DNA of 32,000 nt from an uncultured Candidatus Babeliaceae bacterium (GTDB lineage Bacteria > Babelota > Babeliae > Babelales > Babelaceae), in contig OY969927.1 in assembly GCA_963704655.1 (NCBI GenBank), positions 465,192 through 497,191 of the forward strand, given 5' to 3'. Positions 1,655 through 31,558 of this stretch are shown one piece after another. How positions within the stretch are numbered: position 1 is the first letter of the stretch; each line of letters begins with the position of its first letter. The position numbers and the translations under genes are program-made. The notes below the pieces were generated by a model. It made no database searches, had not been told where the DNA came from, and was given only the letters and a program-made list of their open reading frames with translations.

Positions 1655-1673
1655 TTTTAACCCCTTTTTTTAA

Positions 1674-1823
1674 CCGCTTAATACTTCGACTAGCTCAGTA
1701 TGAGCGGTTTTTTTGTGATTTTTACGTCCAAGTCGCTCATCCTGATACTTCGACTACCTCAGTACCAGGGGCCCGCCTGCCCGCCGAAGCTTTACGCGAA
1801 GGCTGGGTCGAAGGGTTGGCGAC
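1674..1823. repeat. ORF-less cluster of GC-rich palindromic repeat modules, same family as the GIY-YIG element arms
   Basis: Contains ccgcttaatacttcgactagctcagtatgagcgg. Also contains gtcgctcatcctgatacttcgactacctcagtaccaggggcccgcctgcccgccg...gtcgaagggttggcgac. It shares catcctgatacttcgac and cagtaccaggggcc.gcccgccg with the arms at 17148-17393 and 23474-23640. Confidence 0.7.
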
Positions 1824-3887: not shown

Positions 3888-3895
3888 TTATAATA

Positions 3896-3955
3896 CCCGC
3901 CCCTTTTGTTACATTCTTCTTCGCCACAGGCTCGAAGAATATTCAGGGTGCACGG
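3896..3955 (+). repeat. solo hairpin repeat unit, same type as the units flanking the GIY-YIG gene at 9389-9709
   Basis: cccgccccttttgttacattc-[ttcttcg ccacaggct cgaagaa]-tattcagggtgcacgg. The flanks match CATTC...YTCAGGRTGCACGG of units 9294-9340, 9361-9420 and 9731-9781, but the 7-bp stem sequence is different. Confidence 0.6.
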
Positions 3956-4012
3956 TATATAAAATTAAGTTAATTTAGAAATAATTAAAAATTATAACTG
4001 GGAGGTTATACC

Positions 4013-5587: not shown

Positions 5588-7426
5588 ATGGACCTAAAAA
5601 AAATTAATCTTAAAGATTTTACACCCGATAGAATTAGAAACTTTTCTGTAATCGCACATATCGATCATGGCAAATCAACGCTGTGTGACAGGCTTCTAGA
5701 AATTACCGGCACCCTTTCAACCCGTAACAAGAATGAACAGTTTCTTGATAAACTGCAAGTTGAAAAAGAGCGCGGGATTACCGTTAAAGCACAATCTGCT
5801 TCAATGTTTTATGAGTATAAGGGCCAAACTTACCTTTTAAACTTAATCGATACCCCCGGCCACGTTGATTTCAACTACGAAGTTTCTCGTTCATTATACG
5901 CCTGCCAAGGGGCATTATTGCTCGTCGATGCTAGCCAAGGCGTGCAAGCACAAACTATGGCAAACTTTTATTTAGCCTTTGACCAAGATTTAACGATTAT
6001 CCCGGTTATTAATAAAATCGATATGGCCCACGCCGAACCAGAACGCGTAGAAGAAGAGCTTAAAACGCTTTTTGATTTTGATAAATCACAAGTATTACGC
6101 GCATCAGCTAAAGCCGGTATTGGGGTTCATGAAATCTTAGCCGCTATTATTGAGCGCATCCCCGCACCCGTAAGCAAGACAGAAGAGCCCCTTAAAGCGC
6201 TTCTTTTTGATTCATGGTATGACGAATACAAAGGGGTAATCTGTTTAATAGCTGTTAAAAATGGCGCCATTAAAAAAGGCGACCAAATTACTCTTGCTTC
6301 TACTGATAAACAATACGAAGTTTTAGAAATCGGGCTCATGTACCCGGACCAAATGCCCACTGATGCATTATATGCAGGGCAAGTTGGTTATGTTATTACG
6401 GGCATGAAGACCGTACGTGAAGCGCGCGTTGGTGATACGATATTTAACGCCCGACTACAAAAGCAACTACACCAAATGCCCGAACCTGGCTTTAAGCCGT
6501 CAAAACCGATGGTTTTTGCAGGTATTTACCCTGTTGAAGCATCAGATTTTGAATTATTACAAGATGCGATAGAAAAATTAACGCTTAACGACGCCAGTGT
6601 TAAAGTTGAAAAGAAAAGTTCGATTGCATTGGGCCTTGGTTTTCGGTGTGGATTTTTAGGATTGTTGCATATGGATGTCTTTAAGCAGCGTCTTGAGCAA
6701 GAATATAATATGAACGTTATTGCAACGGCACCAAGCGTACTTTTCAAAATTGTTATGAAGTACACCAATGAAACGGTTACCATTGAAAGCCCTTCAGATT
6801 TTCCTGATGTTCAACAAATTGATCATGTATTAGAACCGATTATCGATGCAACTATTTTAGTACCCAAAGAATATCTTGGCGCTATTTTAGCCTTGTGTGA
6901 AGAAAAACGCGGCATTCAAAAAGAACTTTCTTACTTAAATGAACAGCGTATTATTTTACGGTACCGGTTACCACTTAATGAAGTTGCCACTGATTTTTAT
7001 GATCAATTAAAATCACTCAGCTCCGGTTATGCAAGTTTAGATTATGAAGAAGCTGGCTATCAACCGGCAGATTTAGTTAAAATGGATATCTTGCTTAATG
7101 GAAAAGCGGTTGACGCCCTTTCAAGCATTGTTCATGAAGAAAGTGCTCAACGTGTTGGGCGTGAAATTGCAGAACAATTACGAAAAGCGATCCCGCGCCA
7201 GATGTATGAGGTTGCTATTCAGGCTGCTATTGGTGCAAAAGTTATTGCACGTGAATCGATTTCTGCATTACGCAAAAACGTTATAGCAAAGTGTTACGGT
7301 GGTGATATAACCCGAAAACGTAAACTGTTAGAAAAACAAAAAGAAGGTAAGAAAAAAATGAAGCAAGTGGGCAACGTAGAAGTTCCACAAGAAGCTTTCT
7401 TATCGATATTAAAAAAAGAGAGTTAA
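5588..7426 (+). CDS. lepA: translation elongation factor 4 (LepA)
   Basis: 612 aa with G-domain motifs AHIDHGKST, DTPGH and NKID. The LepA-specific C-terminus is present (YGGDITRKRKLLEKQKEGKKKMK). Confidence 0.95.
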   Translation: MDLKKINLKDFTPDRIRNFSVIAHIDHGKSTLCDRLLEITGTLSTRNKNEQFLDKLQVEKERGITVKAQSASMFYEYKGQTYLLNLIDTPGHVDFNYEVSRSLYACQGALLLVDASQGVQAQTMANFYLAFDQDLTIIPVINKIDMAHAEPERVEEELKTLFDFDKSQVLRASAKAGIGVHEILAAIIERIPAPVSKTEEPLKALLFDSWYDEYKGVICLIAVKNGAIKKGDQITLASTDKQYEVLEIGLMYPDQMPTDALYAGQVGYVITGMKTVREARVGDTIFNARLQKQLHQMPEPGFKPSKPMVFAGIYPVEASDFELLQDAIEKLTLNDASVKVEKKSSIALGLGFRCGFLGLLHMDVFKQRLEQEYNMNVIATAPSVLFKIVMKYTNETVTIESPSDFPDVQQIDHVLEPIIDATILVPKEYLGAILALCEEKRGIQKELSYLNEQRIILRYRLPLNEVATDFYDQLKSLSSGYASLDYEEAGYQPADLVKMDILLNGKAVDALSSIVHEESAQRVGREIAEQLRKAIPRQMYEVAIQAAIGAKVIARESISALRKNVIAKCYGGDITRKRKLLEKQKEGKKKMKQVGNVEVPQEAFLSILKKES

Positions 7427-8566: not shown

Positions 8567-9106
8567 TTACTTCTTCTCGCACGTAAAAACTAAATGTCCC
8601 GGATAACCGCCTGAAAAGAATGGTTTAATTTTCTCATCGGTATAAAGTTTTGCATTCAGTGTCCCGCAAGCTTGACTTGCTAAAATATTAATCAAGCCTT
8701 CATTTTTTTTATCTATACCAGGCTTTAAAGGTTCTTGTGTAATAGCATAGAATTTATCAGCCACAGGCTGTATTACCCAGTTTATAGTTGAATCATTCGG
8801 ATTGCTTGTCCAACGCGCAACTTTTAATTTTTGAAGCGGCTTTGCGGTAACCTTATTAGCAGAATCAATGCTTACCAATCCAGCACCAAATTGCGCACAG
8901 AGTGCACGCGCATCAGCTTCGGCCATATTTGGCTCCACCACATCAGACTTACTAAGCATCTTTACATGTGTATGATCGACTGTGATAGTAAACTGATCTC
9001 CTAACTGGGGCTGGAAATAATAATCTGCATTGTATACATCAGGCATACCACCAGCCTGCAAACCTACAGCTGCAAACGAACAGAGTAATAAAAATAACTT
9101 TTTCAC
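8567..9106 (-). CDS. hypothetical secreted protein (GTG start)
   Basis: 179-aa ORF with signal MKKLFLLLCSFAAVGLQA. AGGAGA lies 5 nt upstream of the GTG at 9106. Confidence 0.6.
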   Translation of the reverse strand: MKKLFLLLCSFAAVGLQAGGMPDVYNADYYFQPQLGDQFTITVDHTHVKMLSKSDVVEPNMAEADARALCAQFGAGLVSIDSANKVTAKPLQKLKVARWTSNPNDSTINWVIQPVADKFYAITQEPLKPGIDKKNEGLINILASQACGTLNAKLYTDEKIKPFFSGGYPGHLVFTCEKK

Positions 9107-9242
9107 AACATTCTCCTGAATTTATAAAATTAACACTATATATCTATAAATTCAGGTTAACAAAGAATATCGATAAAAATCAAGAGTTTTAATATAAGAG
9201 ATAATTGATTTTATATTAAAAACTTAAACAAAATTATTATAT

Positions 9243-9287
9243 TTACTCATAAACAGCGACTTTTGCCGGGCGGAGGATCACTGTCCC
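9243..9287 (-). pseudogene. orphan duplicate of the last 14 codons plus stop of grpE
   Basis: The minus strand reads GGG ACA GTG ATC CTC CGC CCG GCA AAA GTC GCT GTT TAT GAG TAA, which is GTVILRPAKVAVYE*. This is identical in protein to the real grpE end at 9794-9838. The two differ at 5 nt, all synonymous third positions. Confidence 0.8.
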
Positions 9288-9293
9288 CTCAAT

Positions 9294-9340
9294 CCGTGCA
9301 CCCTGAGTGTTCACCGCAGGTGAATGTATCGAAGGGTCGG
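9294..9340 (-). repeat. hairpin repeat unit U1 (inverted orientation)
   Basis: Its reverse complement is ccgacccttcgatacattc-acc tgc ggt-gaacactcagggtgcacgg. Confidence 0.75.
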
Positions 9341-9360
9341 CATTTAATTTTATATGACTT

Positions 9361-9420
9361 CCGCTATCCTTCGATACATTCTACTTCGCTAAAGCTTCGT
9401 AGAACACTCAGGATGCACGG
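9361..9420 (+). repeat. hairpin repeat unit U2
   Basis: ccgctatccttcgatacattc-tac ttcgctaaagcttc gta-gaacactcaggatgcacgg. It overlaps the last ~11 codons of the GIY-YIG ORF. Confidence 0.75.
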
Positions 9421-9709
9421 GATCACAGAATTTCTTTTTGGCGTACTCCGTAAGCAACTTAAAATCCCCTGTAATAAGTGCTTCTTTTTTCTTTCGGGTC
9501 CACCCTTTTAATTTTTGCTCAAGCTTAAAAGCTTCAGTGCGCTCTTCTAACGCTGCATGAAAAACTAATGTAACAGGCAATCTTGTTGAGGTATATCCGC
9601 AAATCATCTTATTTTGATGGTCTATAACACGCTTTTCAAGATCATCAGTTTGTCCAACATAATAAGAATCATCACTGCACTTTAAAATATAAACATAAAA
9701 ATATTTCAT
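9389..9709 (-). CDS. small GIY-YIG nuclease family protein (COG2827/UPF0213 type)
   Basis: MKYFYVYILKCSDDSYYVGQTDDLEKRVIDHQN...EQKLKGWTRKKKEAL carries the GIY/YIG motifs, the conserved R/H and the Glu. It is a paralog of 17468-17764 and 23175-23480. Confidence 0.85.
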   Translation of the reverse strand: MKYFYVYILKCSDDSYYVGQTDDLEKRVIDHQNKMICGYTSTRLPVTLVFHAALEERTEAFKLEQKLKGWTRKKKEALITGDFKLLTEYAKKKFCDPVHPECSTKL

Positions 9710-9730
9710 ATAACTTGTTAGACATTAATA

Positions 9731-9781
9731 ATCGCTATCCTTCGATACATTCCCCCGCTGGGGGAACACTCAGGATGCACG
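9731..9781 (+). repeat. hairpin repeat unit U3
   Basis: tcgctatccttcgatacattc-cccc gct gggg-gaacactcaggatgcacgg. Confidence 0.75.
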
Positions 9782-9793
9782 GGGATGGGGAAT

Positions 9794-10243
9794 TTATTCA
9801 TAAACAGCGACTTTAGCAGGGCGCAGGATAACTGTCCCCATGCGATAGCCTTTTTGCAATACCTGTGCAATAGCGCCAGAAACAGCCCCTTCAACTAACG
9901 GCGTTTGCATAATCGCTTCATGTAAATTTGGGTCAAACTGGGTATTTTCGGTAATTTCAGTAACATTAAAGCGACTAAGTACCTTTTTAAATGCTTTATA
10001 GATAAGCTCAAATGCCGGGTTTGATATATCATGCTGTGCACGGTCAAAATCATCAACAATGTCGATCAATTGCGTCAAAACATCTGCTTGTGCAGCCTGT
10101 GACCACTGGCCACGTTGAGCTTCCATGCGCTTTCTATAGTTATCAAAATCAGCCTGCAAATAGGCATATTGTTGCCTACAGCGCACTAATTCGTCGTTAT
10201 CGCGCACAACTGTTTCTTGGTTAAGATTATTATTTTCTTCCAT
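9794..10243 (-). CDS. grpE: nucleotide exchange factor GrpE (short form)
   Basis: 149 aa with LQADFDNYRKRMEAQ and a C-terminal GYRMGTVILRPAKVAVYE, both typical of GrpE. Confidence 0.9.
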   Translation of the reverse strand: MEENNNLNQETVVRDNDELVRCRQQYAYLQADFDNYRKRMEAQRGQWSQAAQADVLTQLIDIVDDFDRAQHDISNPAFELIYKAFKKVLSRFNVTEITENTQFDPNLHEAIMQTPLVEGAVSGAIAQVLQKGYRMGTVILRPAKVAVYE

Positions 10244-10310: not shown

Positions 10311-11192
10311 ATGAAAAAGTATCTATATCTTCTTATTATTGTATGCAGCTGGGCCGCACTGTATAGTTTTAATATCCCTAAGTTTTATCACGGCAGAATA
10401 TTTTTAGATGAACCCCGCTTTTCTGAAAAAGGGCTTTTTACTGCCGACATAACCGTAGCAGGCGGAACCAAGCATTTTAGGGCCAGGGGCTACAAAGGCC
10501 ATTTAGAATTTGCTGAAGCGATTTTACAAGGGTACCTGAATTTTAATAAAGGGATTTTTATTCATGCCTATATCCCCATCAGCTGGGTACGCATGAACGA
10601 TGTCGAACGGTATGATCTTTCGGTTAAACCGCTGCCCCATTGCATCAAAAAAACTGATATCTATAGCCCGGGAATTTTTGCCGGCTGGACGGTAAACTAT
10701 GAAGATACAAAATATCTTGACTATCTGGATGCAACATTTGAGCTGGGCATGCTTTTAAATACACCGAGACATGCCATAAATATACCCCTTTTTCCTATCG
10801 GCTATACAACGCAACCTGGCTTTGCAGGAGCTGGTTATTTCTCGATGGGTGCCTATGAATGGCTCACGCTTGGAGCGTATACGCAGGCTATCAGTTTTCA
10901 ACCTGCAACCATCTGGAGCGCAGGAAGCTATCTTAAACTCGATCACCTGATACCTAAATTGTCTTTTATGGTAGCAGTATGCGGCGATGGGCAAAATAAA
11001 CAGATTGAATCTATAAGTCCGTGGCAGATGCTTTCAGTATACCTATCTTTTGAGGTTGACTTGGCCACCGATGATCGCCCTTGGTTGCCGCGCTTTAAAG
11101 CGCTCTATAGCAAGCCGGTTGCCGGGTATAATATCTTAAAGGCGGGGATGGGCGGTTTCACCGTTGGCGTCGACGCTCAAATCATTTTTTAA
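10311..11192 (+). CDS. hypothetical secreted protein, possible outer-membrane beta-barrel
   Basis: 293 aa with an N-terminal signal, alternating aromatic/glycine-rich segments and a C-terminal Phe (..VDAQIIF), as in many OMPs. Confidence 0.5.
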   Translation: MKKYLYLLIIVCSWAALYSFNIPKFYHGRIFLDEPRFSEKGLFTADITVAGGTKHFRARGYKGHLEFAEAILQGYLNFNKGIFIHAYIPISWVRMNDVERYDLSVKPLPHCIKKTDIYSPGIFAGWTVNYEDTKYLDYLDATFELGMLLNTPRHAINIPLFPIGYTTQPGFAGAGYFSMGAYEWLTLGAYTQAISFQPATIWSAGSYLKLDHLIPKLSFMVAVCGDGQNKQIESISPWQMLSVYLSFEVDLATDDRPWLPRFKALYSKPVAGYNILKAGMGGFTVGVDAQIIF

Positions 11193-11754: not shown

Positions 11755-11796
11755 AGTTTTTAAGAATTAAAGAAGCTAACATCACTTTCAATTCCC

Positions 11797-11826
11797 AACC
11801 CTTCGACTACGCTCAGGGCGAGCGGT
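11797..11826 (+). repeat. solo repeat module (CCCTTCGAC-TACG-CTCAGGGCGAGCGG)
   Basis: aacccttcgactacgctcagggcgagcgg closely matches cgctaacccttcgacaagctcaggatgagcg of the GIY-YIG element arms. Confidence 0.55.
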
Positions 11827-11864
11827 ACTAGGAGGTCGTGAGTTATCAACAAGAAATTATGTAA

Positions 11865-17094: not shown

Positions 17095-17147
17095 TCAAGA
17101 GCAAAATAATATTAACGAAATATAACTAAGCTTTCATCCTCAAAAGT

Positions 17148-17393
17148 GTGTCACCCTGATACTTCGACTGGTGTGTAAACGCACTATTTTTGCTTAGTAC
17201 TAAAGACCAGTTGAACTTGCCTGCCTGCCGCCGTTTCATTCTTATGCTTCGACTTGCCTTTAGTATTGAGCTTGTCGAAATATCAGCACGTGGGTTTACT
17301 CCTGAGCCTGACGAAGGGCTCGCTCATCCTGATACTTCGACTAACGCTCAGCAGTAAAGGCTCGCTCATCCTGAGCTTGTCGAAGGGTTAGCG
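17148..17393. repeat. left arm, a mosaic of GC-rich palindromic modules
   Basis: 17236-17332 matches 22984-23080 with 2 mismatches in 97 nt. The outer part is homologous to the reverse complement of 23560-23640. Confidence 0.75.
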
Positions 17394-17424
17394 CGAATAT
17401 TTAAATTATATTTAATAATAAAAA

Positions 17425-17433
17425 TGTTATAAT
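17425..17433 (+). promoter_or_regulatory. extended -10 promoter element (TGtTATAAT) for the GIY-YIG ORF
   Basis: tgttataat lies 35 nt upstream of the ATG. The same element sits at the same offset in the paralogous element (23125-23133). Confidence 0.4.
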
Positions 17434-17467
17434 TAATCTAAGTTTAAATTTTATAAAGTGTAAGAAA

Positions 17468-17764
17468 ATGTCGGATCAAGTTTTTTATTTATATATCCTA
17501 CAATGTAACGACCAATCATATTATGTTGGCCATACTGATGATATCGAAAAGCGTATTGCTGATCATGCTGCCGGTCTGTGTGGTTATACTTCAAAAAGAT
17601 TACCTGTAAAATTAATTCATATTGATCAATTTCAAGCGCGGGACGAAGCATTTATTGCTGAACATAAAATAAAAGGCTGGACTAGAAAGAAGAAAGAGGC
17701 TTTTATGCAAAAAAAATTTGATGAATTAATTAGGTTATCTAATTTTAAAAAAGAAATTATTTAA
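17468..17764 (+). CDS. small GIY-YIG nuclease family protein (COG2827/UPF0213 type)
   Basis: FYLYILQCNDQSYYVGHTDDIEKRIADHAAG...EHKIKGWTRKKKEAF. About three quarters of residues are identical to 23175-23480. Confidence 0.9.
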   Translation: MSDQVFYLYILQCNDQSYYVGHTDDIEKRIADHAAGLCGYTSKRLPVKLIHIDQFQARDEAFIAEHKIKGWTRKKKEAFMQKKFDELIRLSNFKKEII

Positions 17765-17785
17765 ACTATATACTTTACGCTAATT

Positions 17786-17857
17786 CGCTAACCCTTCGAC
17801 AAGCTCAGGATGAGCGAGCCTTTAGTACTGAGTTTATCGAAGTATCAGGGTGACACC
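17786..17857. repeat. right arm of the element
   Basis: cgctaacccttcgacaagctcaggatgagcgagcc...tcgaagtatcagggtgacac is the reverse complement of left-arm modules. Confidence 0.75.
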
Positions 17858-22896: not shown

Positions 22897-22980
22897 TACG
22901 TTAATTTAATTACAACGTATGCTATCATTCTTGCGACAGCCTCGCACGTCTGAAAATAAAAAAAAGTTGATCTTGTCGCC

Positions 22981-23101
22981 GTGTCATCCTTATGCTTCGA
23001 CTTGCCTTTAGTATTGAGCTTGTCGAAATATCAGCACGTGGGTTTACTCCTGAGCCTGACGAATGGCTCGCTCATCCTGAGCCTGTCGAAGGGTTAGCGA
23101 G
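22981..23101. repeat. left arm of the element
   Basis: Near-identical to 17236-17332. It also contains the inner IR module. Confidence 0.75.
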
Positions 23102-23124
23102 CGCTATTAAATTTATTACTAAAA

Positions 23125-23133
23125 TGATATAAT
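23125..23133 (+). promoter_or_regulatory. extended -10 promoter element (TGaTATAAT)
   Basis: tgatataat lies within the AT-rich core, upstream of the GIY-YIG ATG. Confidence 0.4.
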
Positions 23134-23174
23134 ATGTTGATATGTTTAATTTTAAATTTTAATTTTTATCTCGA

Positions 23175-23480
23175 ATGTTAAACCAGAATTTTTTTGTTTA
23201 TATACTTGAATGCAAAGATAAATCCTATTATGTTGGACATACTGATAATATTGAAAAACGTATTGCAGAACACGCTGAGGGTATGTGCGGATACACATTA
23301 AAGCAGCTACCGGTAAAATTAATTTATATTGAGCAATTTCAAACTCGAGATGAAGCATTTATTGCTGAACATAAAATAAAAGGCTGGACTAGAAAGAAGA
23401 AAGAAGCGTTAATGCAGAAGAGATTTGATGAGTTAATTATATTATCAAATTTCAAAAAAAAATTTCCTGAAACTCGCTAA
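23175..23480 (+). CDS. small GIY-YIG nuclease family protein (COG2827/UPF0213 type)
   Basis: FFVYILECKDKSYYVGHTDNIEKRIAEHAEG...EHKIKGWTRKKKEAL. The stop codon lies inside the right-arm IR. Confidence 0.9.
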   Translation: MLNQNFFVYILECKDKSYYVGHTDNIEKRIAEHAEGMCGYTLKQLPVKLIYIEQFQTRDEAFIAEHKIKGWTRKKKEALMQKRFDELIILSNFKKKFPETR

Positions 23481-23640
23481 CCCTTCGACAAGCTCAGGAT
23501 GAGCGAGCATTTAGTGCTGATATTTCGACAAGCTCAATACTAAAGGCAAATCGAAGCATCAGGATGAGCGGCGGCGGGCAGGCCCCTGGTACTGAGCAAA
23601 ATAGTGCGTTTACGCACCAGTCGAAGTATCAGGATGACAC
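23474..23640. repeat. right arm of the element
   Basis: Its modules mirror the left arm. An additional outer part is homologous to 17148-17235 and 1732-1790 (cagtaccaggggcctgcccgccg; gtgcgtttacgcac hairpin). Confidence 0.75.
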
Positions 23641-23691
23641 CCTTTGCAGAAAAGTTTTTTTCTTAAATATATTTCATCGAACTTATGTTAC

Positions 23692-30785: not shown

Positions 30786-30813
30786 AAAAGGGCCCGGATT
30801 TCGGGCCCCTTTT
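30786..30813. terminator. bidirectional intrinsic terminator between convergent genes
   Basis: aaaa-gggcccg-gattt-cgggccc-ctttt. Confidence 0.7.
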
Positions 30814-31165
30814 AATTAGAATCTTGATTTTTTTTCAACCCAGCTTCTCTCTTTTTCTTTTCTAAATTTCTTTGAAATATAAGAAGTGCACTATTTAAAT
30901 TAAATTCATCAAATTGTTTAATGGTCATATAACCCCGTTCTCTTGGGGTATACTTTGAGGCGAAAGCATCAACAAATGCTTCTATAAGTTGATTTCCATA
31001 CGAAGGGCGTCTTCTTAAAATATAATTTATTGTTTCCGTTCTAAAAGTCGAATTATTTGCATGCGTAGATACATGAGCATTTTGAATATCAACTTGCTTA
31101 GGACAGAACAAATCTGTTGATACACATGCAGCTGTCACTAAAAAAAATAGTTTTTTGTAATTCAT
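30812..31165 (-). CDS. hypothetical small secreted protein (paralog A)
   Basis: 117 aa with signal MNYKKLFFLVTAACVSTDLFC. The 5' end and upstream region are duplicated at 31471-31558. Confidence 0.6.
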   Translation of the reverse strand: MNYKKLFFLVTAACVSTDLFCPKQVDIQNAHVSTHANNSTFRTETINYILRRRPSYGNQLIEAFVDAFASKYTPRERGYMTIKQFDEFNLNSALLIFQRNLEKKKREAGLKKNQDSN

Positions 31166-31207
31166 ACAATACCTTTTACCGTAATAGTTAAAATTTTTGA
31201 ATCATAT
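31121..31207. repeat. ~87-bp duplicated block (5' coding end plus upstream region), copy 1
   Basis: Near-identical to 31471-31558 (gcagctg.cac.aaaaaaaatagttttttgtaattcatacaata.ccttttaccgtaatagttaaaa..tttgaatcata). Confidence 0.8.
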
Positions 31208-31227: not shown

Positions 31228-31515
31228 TTAAAGATTATCAATTATAGAGGATCCAAGACAATTCCGACATTCACCCATTAAATCGGCCTTTTGCATTTTA
31301 CAAAAACTAACATATCTTTCTTTTTGCCCGCGTGCAAAGCTATCAACCACAATAGCAGCCTGATCAATATTAAGAGGTATATTTCTTGCCAACCATCTAA
31401 TAGCTTTAGCTCTATTAACACTATCAACTGTAGGTGCAGCCGTATCTTCGACGCACAACACATGGGTTGTTATACACGCAGCTGCCACCAAAAAAAATAG
31501 TTTTTTGTAATTCAT
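31228..31515 (-). CDS. hypothetical small secreted protein (paralog B)
   Basis: 95 aa with signal MNYKKLFFLVAAACITTHVLC. Confidence 0.6.
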   Translation of the reverse strand: MNYKKLFFLVAAACITTHVLCVEDTAAPTVDSVNRAKAIRWLARNIPLNIDQAAIVVDSFARGQKERYVSFCKMQKADLMGECRNCLGSSIIDNL

Positions 31516-31558
31516 ACAATAACCTTTTACCGTAATAGTTAAAAAATTTGAATCATAG
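31471..31558. repeat. ~87-bp duplicated block, copy 2
   Basis: See 31121-31207. Confidence 0.8.

Follow-up and report, generated by a model that had tools for sequence, protein, structure and literature searches.

The stretch of DNA analyzed here, 32,000 nucleotides (32 kb) from the genome of an uncultured Candidatus Babeliaceae bacterium and referred to throughout as the window, harbors a cassette adjoining grpE, in which the gene coding for a small single-domain GIY-YIG nuclease is accompanied by three copies of a repeat with conserved flanks and a central hairpin; a fourth copy stands alone between a Peptidase_M48 gene and the next gene. These units (A to D) had been recognized in an original prediction made from the letters of the window; all four lie where it placed them and each of their central stems reads as it had been listed, the observation being real and highly non-random. 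The proposed ends of the units hold in general, except that unit C ends at 9782 and not at 9781. Conserved flanks do exist, but the TTC...GAA that had been counted with them is assigned here to the variable hairpin, because in other genomes all 6-7 bp of the central stem vary and the conserved flanks are CCTTCGATACA and CACTCAGGRTGCACGG. The units and the gene, together with the matches of a covariance model described below, are as follows:

9289..9791, no single strand: first cassette, 503 bp, embedding unit A (minus), unit B (plus), the nuclease gene and unit C (plus)
9294..9340, minus strand: unit A, long form, CCTTCGATACA / TTCACC tgc GGTGAA / CACTCAGGGTGCACGG, the distal downstream unit of the cassette (model match 9289-9346, minus, 74.5 bits, E 1e-14)
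9361..9420, plus strand: unit B, long form, stem TTCTAC/GTAGAA, 14-nt loop ttcgctaaagcttc with a small inner GC/GC pairing; it overlaps the final 10 codons of the nuclease open reading frame (ORF) (model match 9357-9425, plus, 57.3 bits; fold predicted)
9389..9709, minus strand: 106-aa single-domain GIY-YIG nuclease gene, Pfam PF01541 (E 1e-14) as the sole Pfam domain
9731..9782, plus strand: unit C, a long-form copy whose stem TTCCCCC/GGGGGAA carries the loop gct; it precedes the start codon of the nuclease gene by 22 bp, and 11 bp separate it from the stop codon of grpE (model match 9728-9787, plus, 59.6 bits)
3896..3955, plus strand: unit D, solo, degraded long form, stem TTCTTCG/CGAAGAA, 5' core TTTGTTACA in place of TTCGATACA (model match 3891-3960, 29.7 bits, E 5e-5)

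The 3' flank TCAGGRTGCACGG occurs exactly four times in the window (3943-3955 plus, 9294-9306 minus, 9408-9420 plus and 9770-9782 plus); when up to two mismatches are allowed there are five matches versus 0.43 expected, a number that none of 100 shuffles reached. The 5' flank CCTTCGATACATTC is perfect in units A to C; unit D departs from it at three positions (CTTTTGTTACATTC) and is a degraded copy also by its score (29.7 bits versus 57-75 bits for A to C).

The alignment of the nuclease reveals the presence of Y5/Y7, Y17, R27, H31, and E64. The last 10 codons of its ORF (DPVHPECSTKL) represent read-through into unit B, and the ortholog of locus L051 (loci other than the window are given L numbers) ends at 94 aa, before the unit. 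In NCBIfam, only a sub-threshold match to a group I intron endonuclease was found, and it was set aside. Two paralogs, 54-55% identical to this protein, are encoded in the window, and PF01541 is the only domain in all three (98-106 aa). The repeats also create or lengthen ORFs containing the string ...PVHPECS... (9263..9511, plus; 9718..9894, minus; and 9389..9709, minus), and these will probably show up in automated gene calls as spurious small proteins or C-terminal extensions.

The four units are one subfamily of a wider family, described by N4-TTCGAY-(2..60 nt)-CTCA-N4' (with complementary N4), of which the window contains at least 15 copies versus 0.36 in shuffles. Most of these are of a short form devoid of the central hairpin, and a long-form unit corresponds to a short unit with a hairpin inserted between ...TTCGAYACA and CACTCAGG... 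Each of the three paralogous genes is flanked by inverted units, the short units of the two other paralogs having no central hairpin:

17143..17856, plus strand: second cassette, with a 98-aa GIY-YIG paralog (17468..17764, plus) between composite inverted arrays (17143-17397 and 17782-17856) made of short units such as CGCTAACCCTTCGACAAGCTCAGGATGAGCG (17357-17397, minus; 17782-17822, plus); inverted repeat I8 has 47-nt arms, 96% complementary
22974..23645, plus strand: third cassette, with a 101-aa GIY-YIG paralog (23175..23480, plus) between composite inverted arrays (22974-23113 and 23471-23645); the short units occupy 23063-23103 (minus) and 23471-23511 (plus), and 23589-23629 (minus) is a long variant whose stem is GTGCG/CGCAC; inverted repeats I3, I5 and I7
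1672..1771, plus strand: two solo short units with different outer helices, ATACTTCGACTAGCTCAGTAT and ATACTTCGACTACCTCAGTAC
11789..11830, plus strand: solo short unit, ACCCTTCGACTACGCTCAGGGC

The second and third cassettes lie 5.7 kb apart, and their arrays combine several different repeat modules into composite inverted repeats of ~120 nt; between the left array of one cassette and the right array of the other, complementarity reaches 94-96% (I5 to I9).

Anatomy of the units and covariation of their helices

Each unit consists of three elements, that is, an outer 5-bp helix (P1), a conserved and largely unpaired core (TTCGAYA…CACTCA), and an apical helix (P2), the latter being the hairpin of the original prediction, in which P1 had been overlooked. 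P1 is formed by the flanks themselves, A-Y-C-C-T pairing with A-G-G-R-T or, in general terms, A-N-C-C-T with A-G-G-N'-T, and its sequence is free while its pairing is kept, so that the unit as a whole makes up a single long hairpin interrupted by a conserved internal loop. This loop is asymmetric, with TC-GA-TACA on one side and CAC-TC on the other; the core as a whole reads T-TCGA-(T)ACA in its 5' half and CAC-TCA in its 3' half. P2 is optional; where present, it is usually 6-7 bp long, has no fixed sequence, and ends in a C:G closing pair and a triloop.

A scan with the exact flanks retrieved three loci in species-representative genomes (all of them TM6/Babeliaceae-type or unclassified metagenome-assembled genomes, MAGs) and 45 in JGI metagenomes, and a harvest based on the flanks only, with the center left unconstrained, yielded 67 distinct units. 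At least four consecutive Watson-Crick pairs abut both flanks in 51 of these 67, versus about 0.7% of shuffled centers; there are 33 distinct stems, with 327 Watson-Crick pairs, one G.T pair and two mismatches. A perfect stem of at least 4 bp is present anywhere in the center of 59/67 units, a convincing hairpin being wanting in only two or three, and the stem is 6-7 bp long in 42/67. A covariance model, seeded from 17 gap-free units chosen for having stems (the pair count of the seed itself is thus biased), retrieved 86 units, 77 of them distinct. In these 77, P2 is 97.9% paired, with six of its six pairs altered on both sides; the corresponding figures for P1 are 93.7% and four of five, and its changes include swaps from CC/GG to GG/CC; two conserved G-A/T-C pairs are invariant. 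The observed covariation score was reached by none of 500 shuffles, and slid partners were only 22-43% paired. The alignment of the 77 units was fitted to the model and thus leans to structure, a bias from which the flank-only count of the 67 units is free; taken together, the two sets bear out the idea that the hairpin is maintained by compensated variation. Across loci, the variants of P1 include ATAC/GTAT, ACCC/GGGT, ATCC/GGAT, ATGG/CCAT, ACAC/GTGT, GGAC/GTCT and GGGC/GCCT.

Some further features of the apical region were observed. In several contigs from peat metagenomes, a complete unit in reverse orientation is nested exactly at ACA|CAC of an outer unit with P1 ATGGT/ACCAT (L013 2560-2651, and also L018, L038, L040, L043 and L047), the copies differing only in the innermost tetraloop (tacc, aaga, tagc). 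Long apical loops are patterned as T(T/A)CGC-NNNN-AGC-T(T/A)C with 2-3 bp of inner pairing (unit B, 9383-9396; L019, L042, L008 and L029), and they begin and end with CTTCG-like strings similar to the conserved 5' core CTTCGA. The stem TTCTAC/GTAGAA is found with a TTC triloop (L049) as well as with the long loop.

As to the molecule that folds, for which single-stranded DNA (ssDNA), a cruciform and RNA had all been considered, the wobble counts, the bias of the loops, the occurrence of both orientations and a unit inside an ORF narrow the choice, favoring DNA over RNA. Indeed, the non-Watson-Crick pairs (20 G.T versus 19 A.C) exhibit no wobble bias, and P2 has only two G.T in about 440 pairs. 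These symmetric counts led us to discard wobble-pair strand bias as a means of picking the functional strand, the bias of the loops being informative instead: the triloop is TNC in 31/37 cases and the closing pair is C:G in 64/73 units, the complementary strand reading C-GNA-G. The sequence d(C-GNA-G) is an unusually stable DNA mini-hairpin motif. The apex of NTS, the hairpin repeat of Neisseria discussed below, has on the strand cut by the nuclease SsnA the same kind of loop, C-GMAV-G (PMC11893778). Units occur in both orientations, and one of them lies in frame inside the phosphoglycerate mutase gene gpmI of L006. There (6478-6580), a long unit and a second related module add in frame about 21 residues at a gap in the alignment with PDB 5VPU; this gpmI also seems to be frameshifted near position 6290. 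Because of the GNA bias of the loops and their C:G closing pair, our data favor a DNA hairpin rather than an RNA one, and the folding strand is probably 5'-CCGTGCAYCCTGAGTG...TGTATCGAAGG.

The opposite idea, according to which the units would function as structured RNA (small RNAs, cis-regulatory elements or small ribozymes), with the internal loop as functional center and P1 and P2 as supporting helices, the nuclease gene being a mere neighbor or a regulated target, appears to us very improbable. It is true that an RNA motif would likewise be expected to have nested helices, both covarying, and a conserved internal loop of asymmetric shape, and that the start codon of the nuclease gene closely follows unit C, with B and D at gene ends. 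However, Rfam 15 gave no match at the gathering threshold in the whole window and only chance-level ones at E up to 5 in the region 9230-9850, and the inspection by eye of the conserved core for signatures of hammerhead, twister, pistol and K-turn disclosed none. Moreover, G.U-type pairs are no commoner than A.C ones, both orientations are present around one gene, a unit falls within a coding region, a TNC/GNA loop closed by C:G fits DNA mini-hairpins and not RNA tetraloops, and SsnA does not bind RNA (PMC11893778).

We compared orthologous cassettes whose nucleases are 92% (L188) and 77% (L051) identical to that of the window. The center of unit C, TTCCCCC/GGGGGAA in the window, is CTCACC/GGTGAG in both L188 and L051, and that of unit B, TTCTAC/GTAGAA in the window and in L188, is AAATTCC-tgc-GGAATTT in L051; the 20-30 nt on either side of the swapped hairpins are identical or nearly so. 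Identical flanks around replaced hairpins argue that the centers are exchanged as whole modules, probably by conversion between units sharing common flanks. Judging from this exchange, from the nested units and from the short units lacking P2, the P2 position accepts any stable hairpin, and the stem sequence is not matched to the nuclease. The suggestion that variable stems encode target or identity specificity thus finds no support: three different stems coexist in one cassette, hairpins are replaced between orthologous cassettes, the units of the paralogs in the window have no central hairpin, and TTCACC/GGTGAA recurs on unrelated contigs.

It might be argued that the central pairing is a by-product of DNA mechanics and does not reflect selection on a function, with template switching at quasi-palindromes correcting one arm against the other and gene conversion swapping whole centers among units that have identical flanks, in which case the covariation would say little on recognition. 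The almost purely Watson-Crick pairing, with no wobble intermediates, the replacement of whole hairpins rather than stepwise change at the orthologous units B and C, and the dispensability of P2 (intact nuclease genes are flanked by short units lacking it) would all be accounted for. On the other hand, P2 invariably sits at ACA|CAC, stems of 6-7 bp are preferred, the C:G closing pair is conserved and the triloop is biased, none of which mechanics alone would impose, and P1 covaries although its arms are 25-60 nt apart. For these reasons we regard such an origin as unlikely.

Association with nuclease genes and sites of insertion

The original prediction linked the hairpin units to the adjacent nuclease, and this link is borne out by the finding that homologous mini GIY-YIG genes are bordered by this core in five or more genomic backgrounds that are unrelated to one another. 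Homologs of the nuclease were examined in their contigs for the flanking core motif, with the following outcome:

L008, marine contig: nuclease 60% identical; its gene is accompanied by five long units, none of them farther away than 400 bp
L019, L035 and L051, metagenome contigs: the same core flanking the nuclease gene
L058, high-GC 2.4-Mb contig: leuC and leuD enclose the nuclease gene, which has the short unit ATGGTTCGACAGGCTCACCAT
L059: short unit GTCATCCTTCGACAAGCTCAGGATGAC flanking the nuclease gene
L060, Melioribacteraceae MAG (Ignavibacteriota): GGACTTCGATACG-TTTCGC-tcc-GCGAAA-CTACTCAGTCT
L061, Sphingomonas chromid: GCCCTTCGACTTCGCTCAGGGC

In 20-kb loci with homologous genes, the motif matches falling within 400 bp of the gene were 5/5, 1/1, 2/2 and 3/4. 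P1 differs in almost every such locus and is paired in all of them; the motif co-occurs with one nuclease group across phyla, with nuclease identities down to 40%. The presence of the same core beside homologs with differing but paired P1 helices shows that the core sequence and this protein group travel together across phyla.

The cassettes adjoin or sit inside essential and conserved genes (grpE, leuC/leuD, after leuS and after valS). In the window, the region of grpE comprises the following features:

9241..9288, minus strand: grpE-end remnant (last 14 codons, stop codon and 3 nt), a direct repeat with 9792-9839
9792..9839, minus strand: functional grpE 3' end, the other copy of the 48-bp direct repeat bracketing the cassette; PF01025 GrpE
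9794..10243, minus strand: grpE, PF01025 GrpE

The two 48-bp copies are 90% identical, with five differences, all of them synonymous, and both encode GTVILRPAKVAVYE*. In the related genome L184, whose LepA is 88% identical, only 5 bp separate the ends of the 351-aa gene and of grpE, and the cassette is absent; judged from this empty site, the 503-bp cassette is an insertion relative to that genome. No unit was detected by the covariance model in 39 kb of three related genomes, nor, as regards unit D, in the syntenic genome L184. A comparable duplication was found in L058, where ~54 bp of the leuD 5' end are repeated on either side of the cassette (10001-10054 and 10446-10498), and in the L186/L051 lineage a grpE-end remnant of ~60 nt adjoins unit C (L186 400-460, L051 830-890), with a 215-aa ORF separating the remnant from the intact grpE. 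No end duplication of ~50 bp is seen at L059 or L061, and a general ~50-bp target duplication was therefore dropped as a defining feature, being present at the window cassette and L058 and absent at L059 and L061. It is likewise doubtful that the 48-bp repeat is a simple target-site duplication, because in L186 a different insertion, the 215-aa ORF, is also bracketed by the grpE-end remnant.

This scenario calls to mind a free-standing GIY-YIG homing endonuclease that would cut double-stranded DNA (dsDNA) or a cruciform, the units representing its target or homology arms and the cassette spreading by double-strand-break repair to sites that contain units. GIY-YIG homing endonucleases are well known, and the proximity to essential genes, the ~50-bp duplications of the end of the target gene bracketing two cassettes, and the empty site in a related genome are all in agreement with it. 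Nevertheless, we consider it quite unlikely: the proteins have no DNA-binding domain beyond a catalytic core of ~80 aa; the spacing of the flanks ranges from 2 to more than 45 nt, which makes a duplex site inconstant unless the center is extruded; the covariation of P1 reflects intrastrand pairing; solo units are many and dispersed; and the nearest characterized relatives cut ssDNA only (PMC11893778).

Still less credible, in our opinion, is that the units are ordinary elements of the type of miniature inverted-repeat transposable elements (MITEs) or repetitive extragenic palindromic (REP) sequences, moved by an unrelated transposase encoded elsewhere, with the GIY-YIG genes as passengers or insertion hot spots. 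The units are indeed dispersed, sometimes nested and in one case inside an ORF. However, no match to a transposase or to Y1_Tnp (of the type of REP-associated tyrosine transposases, RAYTs) was found among the genes of the window or on the cassettes, the motif tracks a single nuclease group across phyla, and the units have neither terminal inverted repeats of their own nor short target duplications.

A few observations concern the surroundings of the cassette and other parts of the window. Between the 351-aa gene and the grpE remnant lies a 179-aa ORF (8567..9106, minus) with a signal-peptide-like N-terminus and no Pfam match, which is absent from the syntenic site in L184 and L051. The small ORFs 30812..31165 (117 aa) and 31228..31515 (95 aa), both on the minus strand, have duplicated 5' and upstream regions (31104-31177 and 31454-31527; 85-91% identical over ~110 nt), which resembles a local tandem gene duplication. 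Finally, lepA is one intact 612-aa ORF in the window (5588..7426) and is split into four fragments (109, 115, 87 and 202 aa) in the ENA copy L001 (12820-14662), which suggests frameshift errors of that assembly and not a pseudogene. The LepA of the organism, a member of Babeliaceae (Dependentiae) represented by a metagenomic contig of 1.3 Mb, is 77-80% identical to proteins of named MAGs from the same group.

Relationship with known systems and possible role of the units

The analogy with REP hairpins and RAYT put forward in the original prediction concerns the architecture, that is, a gene between inverted hairpin units plus solo copies, and not the enzyme, which is a GIY-YIG nuclease without any Y1 match. 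With REP and REPIN sequences the units share dispersed intergenic copies, both solo and paired, a hairpin thought to be recognized as ssDNA, and a stem that varies while the structure is conserved; they differ from them in having a GIY-YIG nuclease instead of an HUH/Y1 transposase, in the absence of a GTAG or CGTC tag, and in the two helices placed around a conserved internal loop. The parallel with IS200/IS605 and TnpA is also partial: a small enzyme recognizing ssDNA hairpins at the ends of the element would be common to both, but in the window there is no Y1 transposase, the units are inverted whereas the IS200/IS605 end hairpins lie on the same strand, and no guide-tetranucleotide logic was detected. 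Rickettsia palindromic elements (RPEs) are palindromic repeats of ~100-150 bp that occur in a reduced intracellular genome, sometimes in frame inside genes. The in-frame unit in gpmI of L006 resembles them by description only, RPEs being longer.

A much closer precedent is represented by the Ssn proteins (Chenal et al., Nat Commun 2025, PMC11893778), single-domain GIY-YIG proteins of ~94 aa (CDD cd10448) whose genes are flanked by hairpin repeats, termed NTS in Neisseria and SRM in general. Nm SsnA (94 aa) binds its flanking repeat in the form of ssDNA but does not bind the corresponding dsDNA, RNA or reverse strand; it cleaves a few nucleotides upstream of the repeat, and its activity is lost when the sequence of the palindrome is changed and the hairpin is kept (PMC11893778). 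The same authors pointed to the likeness with insertion sequences and REP/RAYT, and listed Rickettsia among the SRM-rich genera (PMC11893778). With the proteins of the window, Ssn shares the single GIY-YIG domain in a size range of ~94-106 aa, the catalytic positions, which in Nm numbering are Y6, Y17 and E64, and a C-terminal tail, K-x-W-(S/T/N)-R...LI...(W/F)..L. Hairpin repeats lie on both sides of the gene and in many solo copies, as in the 'NTS-ssnA-NTS' architecture; conserved nucleotides are found directly beside the palindrome, a G-first loop is closed by C:G on one strand, and the system is enriched in symbiont-type genomes. The differences concern the motif, which here is TTCGAY...CTCA, with a conserved unpaired core and two free helices, whereas the NTS palindrome is itself conserved and required; the additional apical hairpin, variable in sequence and length; and the host taxa, Dependentiae being unmentioned in the main text of PMC11893778. 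A loose resemblance emerged when the reverse strand was aligned position by position to NTS (GTCAT / GTGCAT...), which we did not use, as the SRM pattern fails to match.

For the comparison at the protein level, five NTS-flanked Ssn proteins were taken from IMG/VR, the gene of L112 having NTS on each side. All-against-all comparison placed the motif-linked proteins in a group of their own (mean identity 52%, 99 bits within the group), with 34% identity and 42 mean bits versus NTS-type Ssn. The best matches with solved structures belong to UPF0213 (B. subtilis YazA, E. coli YhbQ), namely 1ZG2 BH0048 (E 8e-12) and 1YWL EF2693 (2.5e-10), likewise single-domain proteins of ~100 aa. However, yazA, in the one locus inspected, has a fixed position between housekeeping genes and showed no units, the C-terminal tail with its W is missing from UPF0213 proteins, and the system of the window has multiple paralogs, flanking repeats, and presence/absence between related genomes. 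The literature on the motif strings of the units gave primer coincidences only, that on GIY-YIG with REP/RAYT or Dependentiae gave nothing on bacterial repeats, and that on UPF0213, YhbQ and YazA yielded no useful information. Overall, the sequence comparisons depict a system closely similar to the nuclease-repeat system described for Ssn in 2025, with its own motif and its own protein branch; by analogy, it is best described as a system that works like Ssn/SRM, strict membership being unproven, and the SRM motif does not match.

On this basis, the explanation that we consider probable is that the units are copies of a dispersed DNA repeat that forms hairpins and serves as cognate site for the small single-domain GIY-YIG nuclease whose gene they enclose. 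The data show how the units are built, that P1 and P2 covary, that motif and gene are linked in several phyla and that the insertion is polymorphic; on the model of the Ssn nucleases with their NTS/SRM hairpins, we infer from there that the window protein binds and cleaves ssDNA, which strand it uses, what P2 does and how the element spreads. One strand would fold once the DNA becomes single-stranded during replication, repair or DNA uptake, and the nuclease would read the conserved core held between the helices and then nick nearby. The substrate strand would probably be the complement of the orientation adopted in the original prediction, i.e., 5'-CCGTGCAYCCTGAGTG-stem-GNA-stem-TGTATCGAAGG. 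P2 might clamp the fold at the hairpin tip irrespective of its own sequence, which would explain both its free but paired sequence and the existence of short units lacking it. The cassette of gene plus units, together with the solo units, might behave as a selfish, mobile or recombinogenic element, similar to REPIN/RAYT.

Several findings weigh against this explanation. The nuclease gene lies on the same (often short) metagenome contig in only 3 of 45 unit loci, and the folding of single sequences as ssDNA reproduces P1 and P2 but only modestly beats shuffles (z from -0.4 to -2.7). A change in the NTS palindrome abolishes the activity of Nm SsnA, whereas the stems vary freely in the units described here. 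The SRM pattern HGTCWYN(0-2)YYVSBRHN(0-5)WNVSBRGN(0-2)RNCYNB, which matches the NTS control, has no match in the window and in eight loci with homologous nucleases, where the best fuzzy matches have 3-5 mismatches and are no better than shuffles. The identity to the five NTS-flanked Ssn proteins is 27-36% (best E 3e-10 in a 1-Mb database), and the motif-linked group scores higher versus UPF0213 (YazA, 1ZG2, 1YWL; 41% identity, 64 mean bits), so that to transfer the Ssn mechanism, as done here by analogy, is an extrapolation across subfamilies. In addition, no excision or empty-site joints were seen in the low-coverage metagenome runs examined. Even so, the central idea of the original prediction, a structure that would be recognized by the adjacent nuclease, is well supported by the comparative evidence and by a close published precedent.

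A more ambitious possibility, which we put forward tentatively and hold to be rather doubtful, is that these proteins form a second, previously unrecognized lineage among the mini GIY-YIG nucleases, standing closer to UPF0213 than to canonical Ssn and having in several phyla its own hairpin site, composed of P1, the TTCGAY...CTCA core and an optional P2; the system would be actively mobile, with a GIY-YIG ssDNA nuclease replacing a transposase, and would insert in or beside essential genes, leaving gene-end duplications of ~50 bp that keep the gene intact.

The kind of system has been known since 2025, and what is new here is the variant site with its protein group. If the proposed recognition is true, the partnership of nuclease and hairpin would not be limited to the cd10448/NTS-type motif and would extend to a sister group with a different conserved site in Dependentiae, Ignavibacteriota, Alphaproteobacteria, and others. 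The 77 distinct variants represent a natural mutational scan, which sets a fixed unpaired core against two helices needing only to pair and might guide the biochemistry; they may also offer a new specificity for ssDNA-cutting tools. As regards annotation, the repeats yield spurious or extended ORFs (…PVHPECS…) and in-frame insertions; as regards the organism, they mark insertions and rearrangements beside essential genes in a symbiont-type genome of 1.3 Mb.

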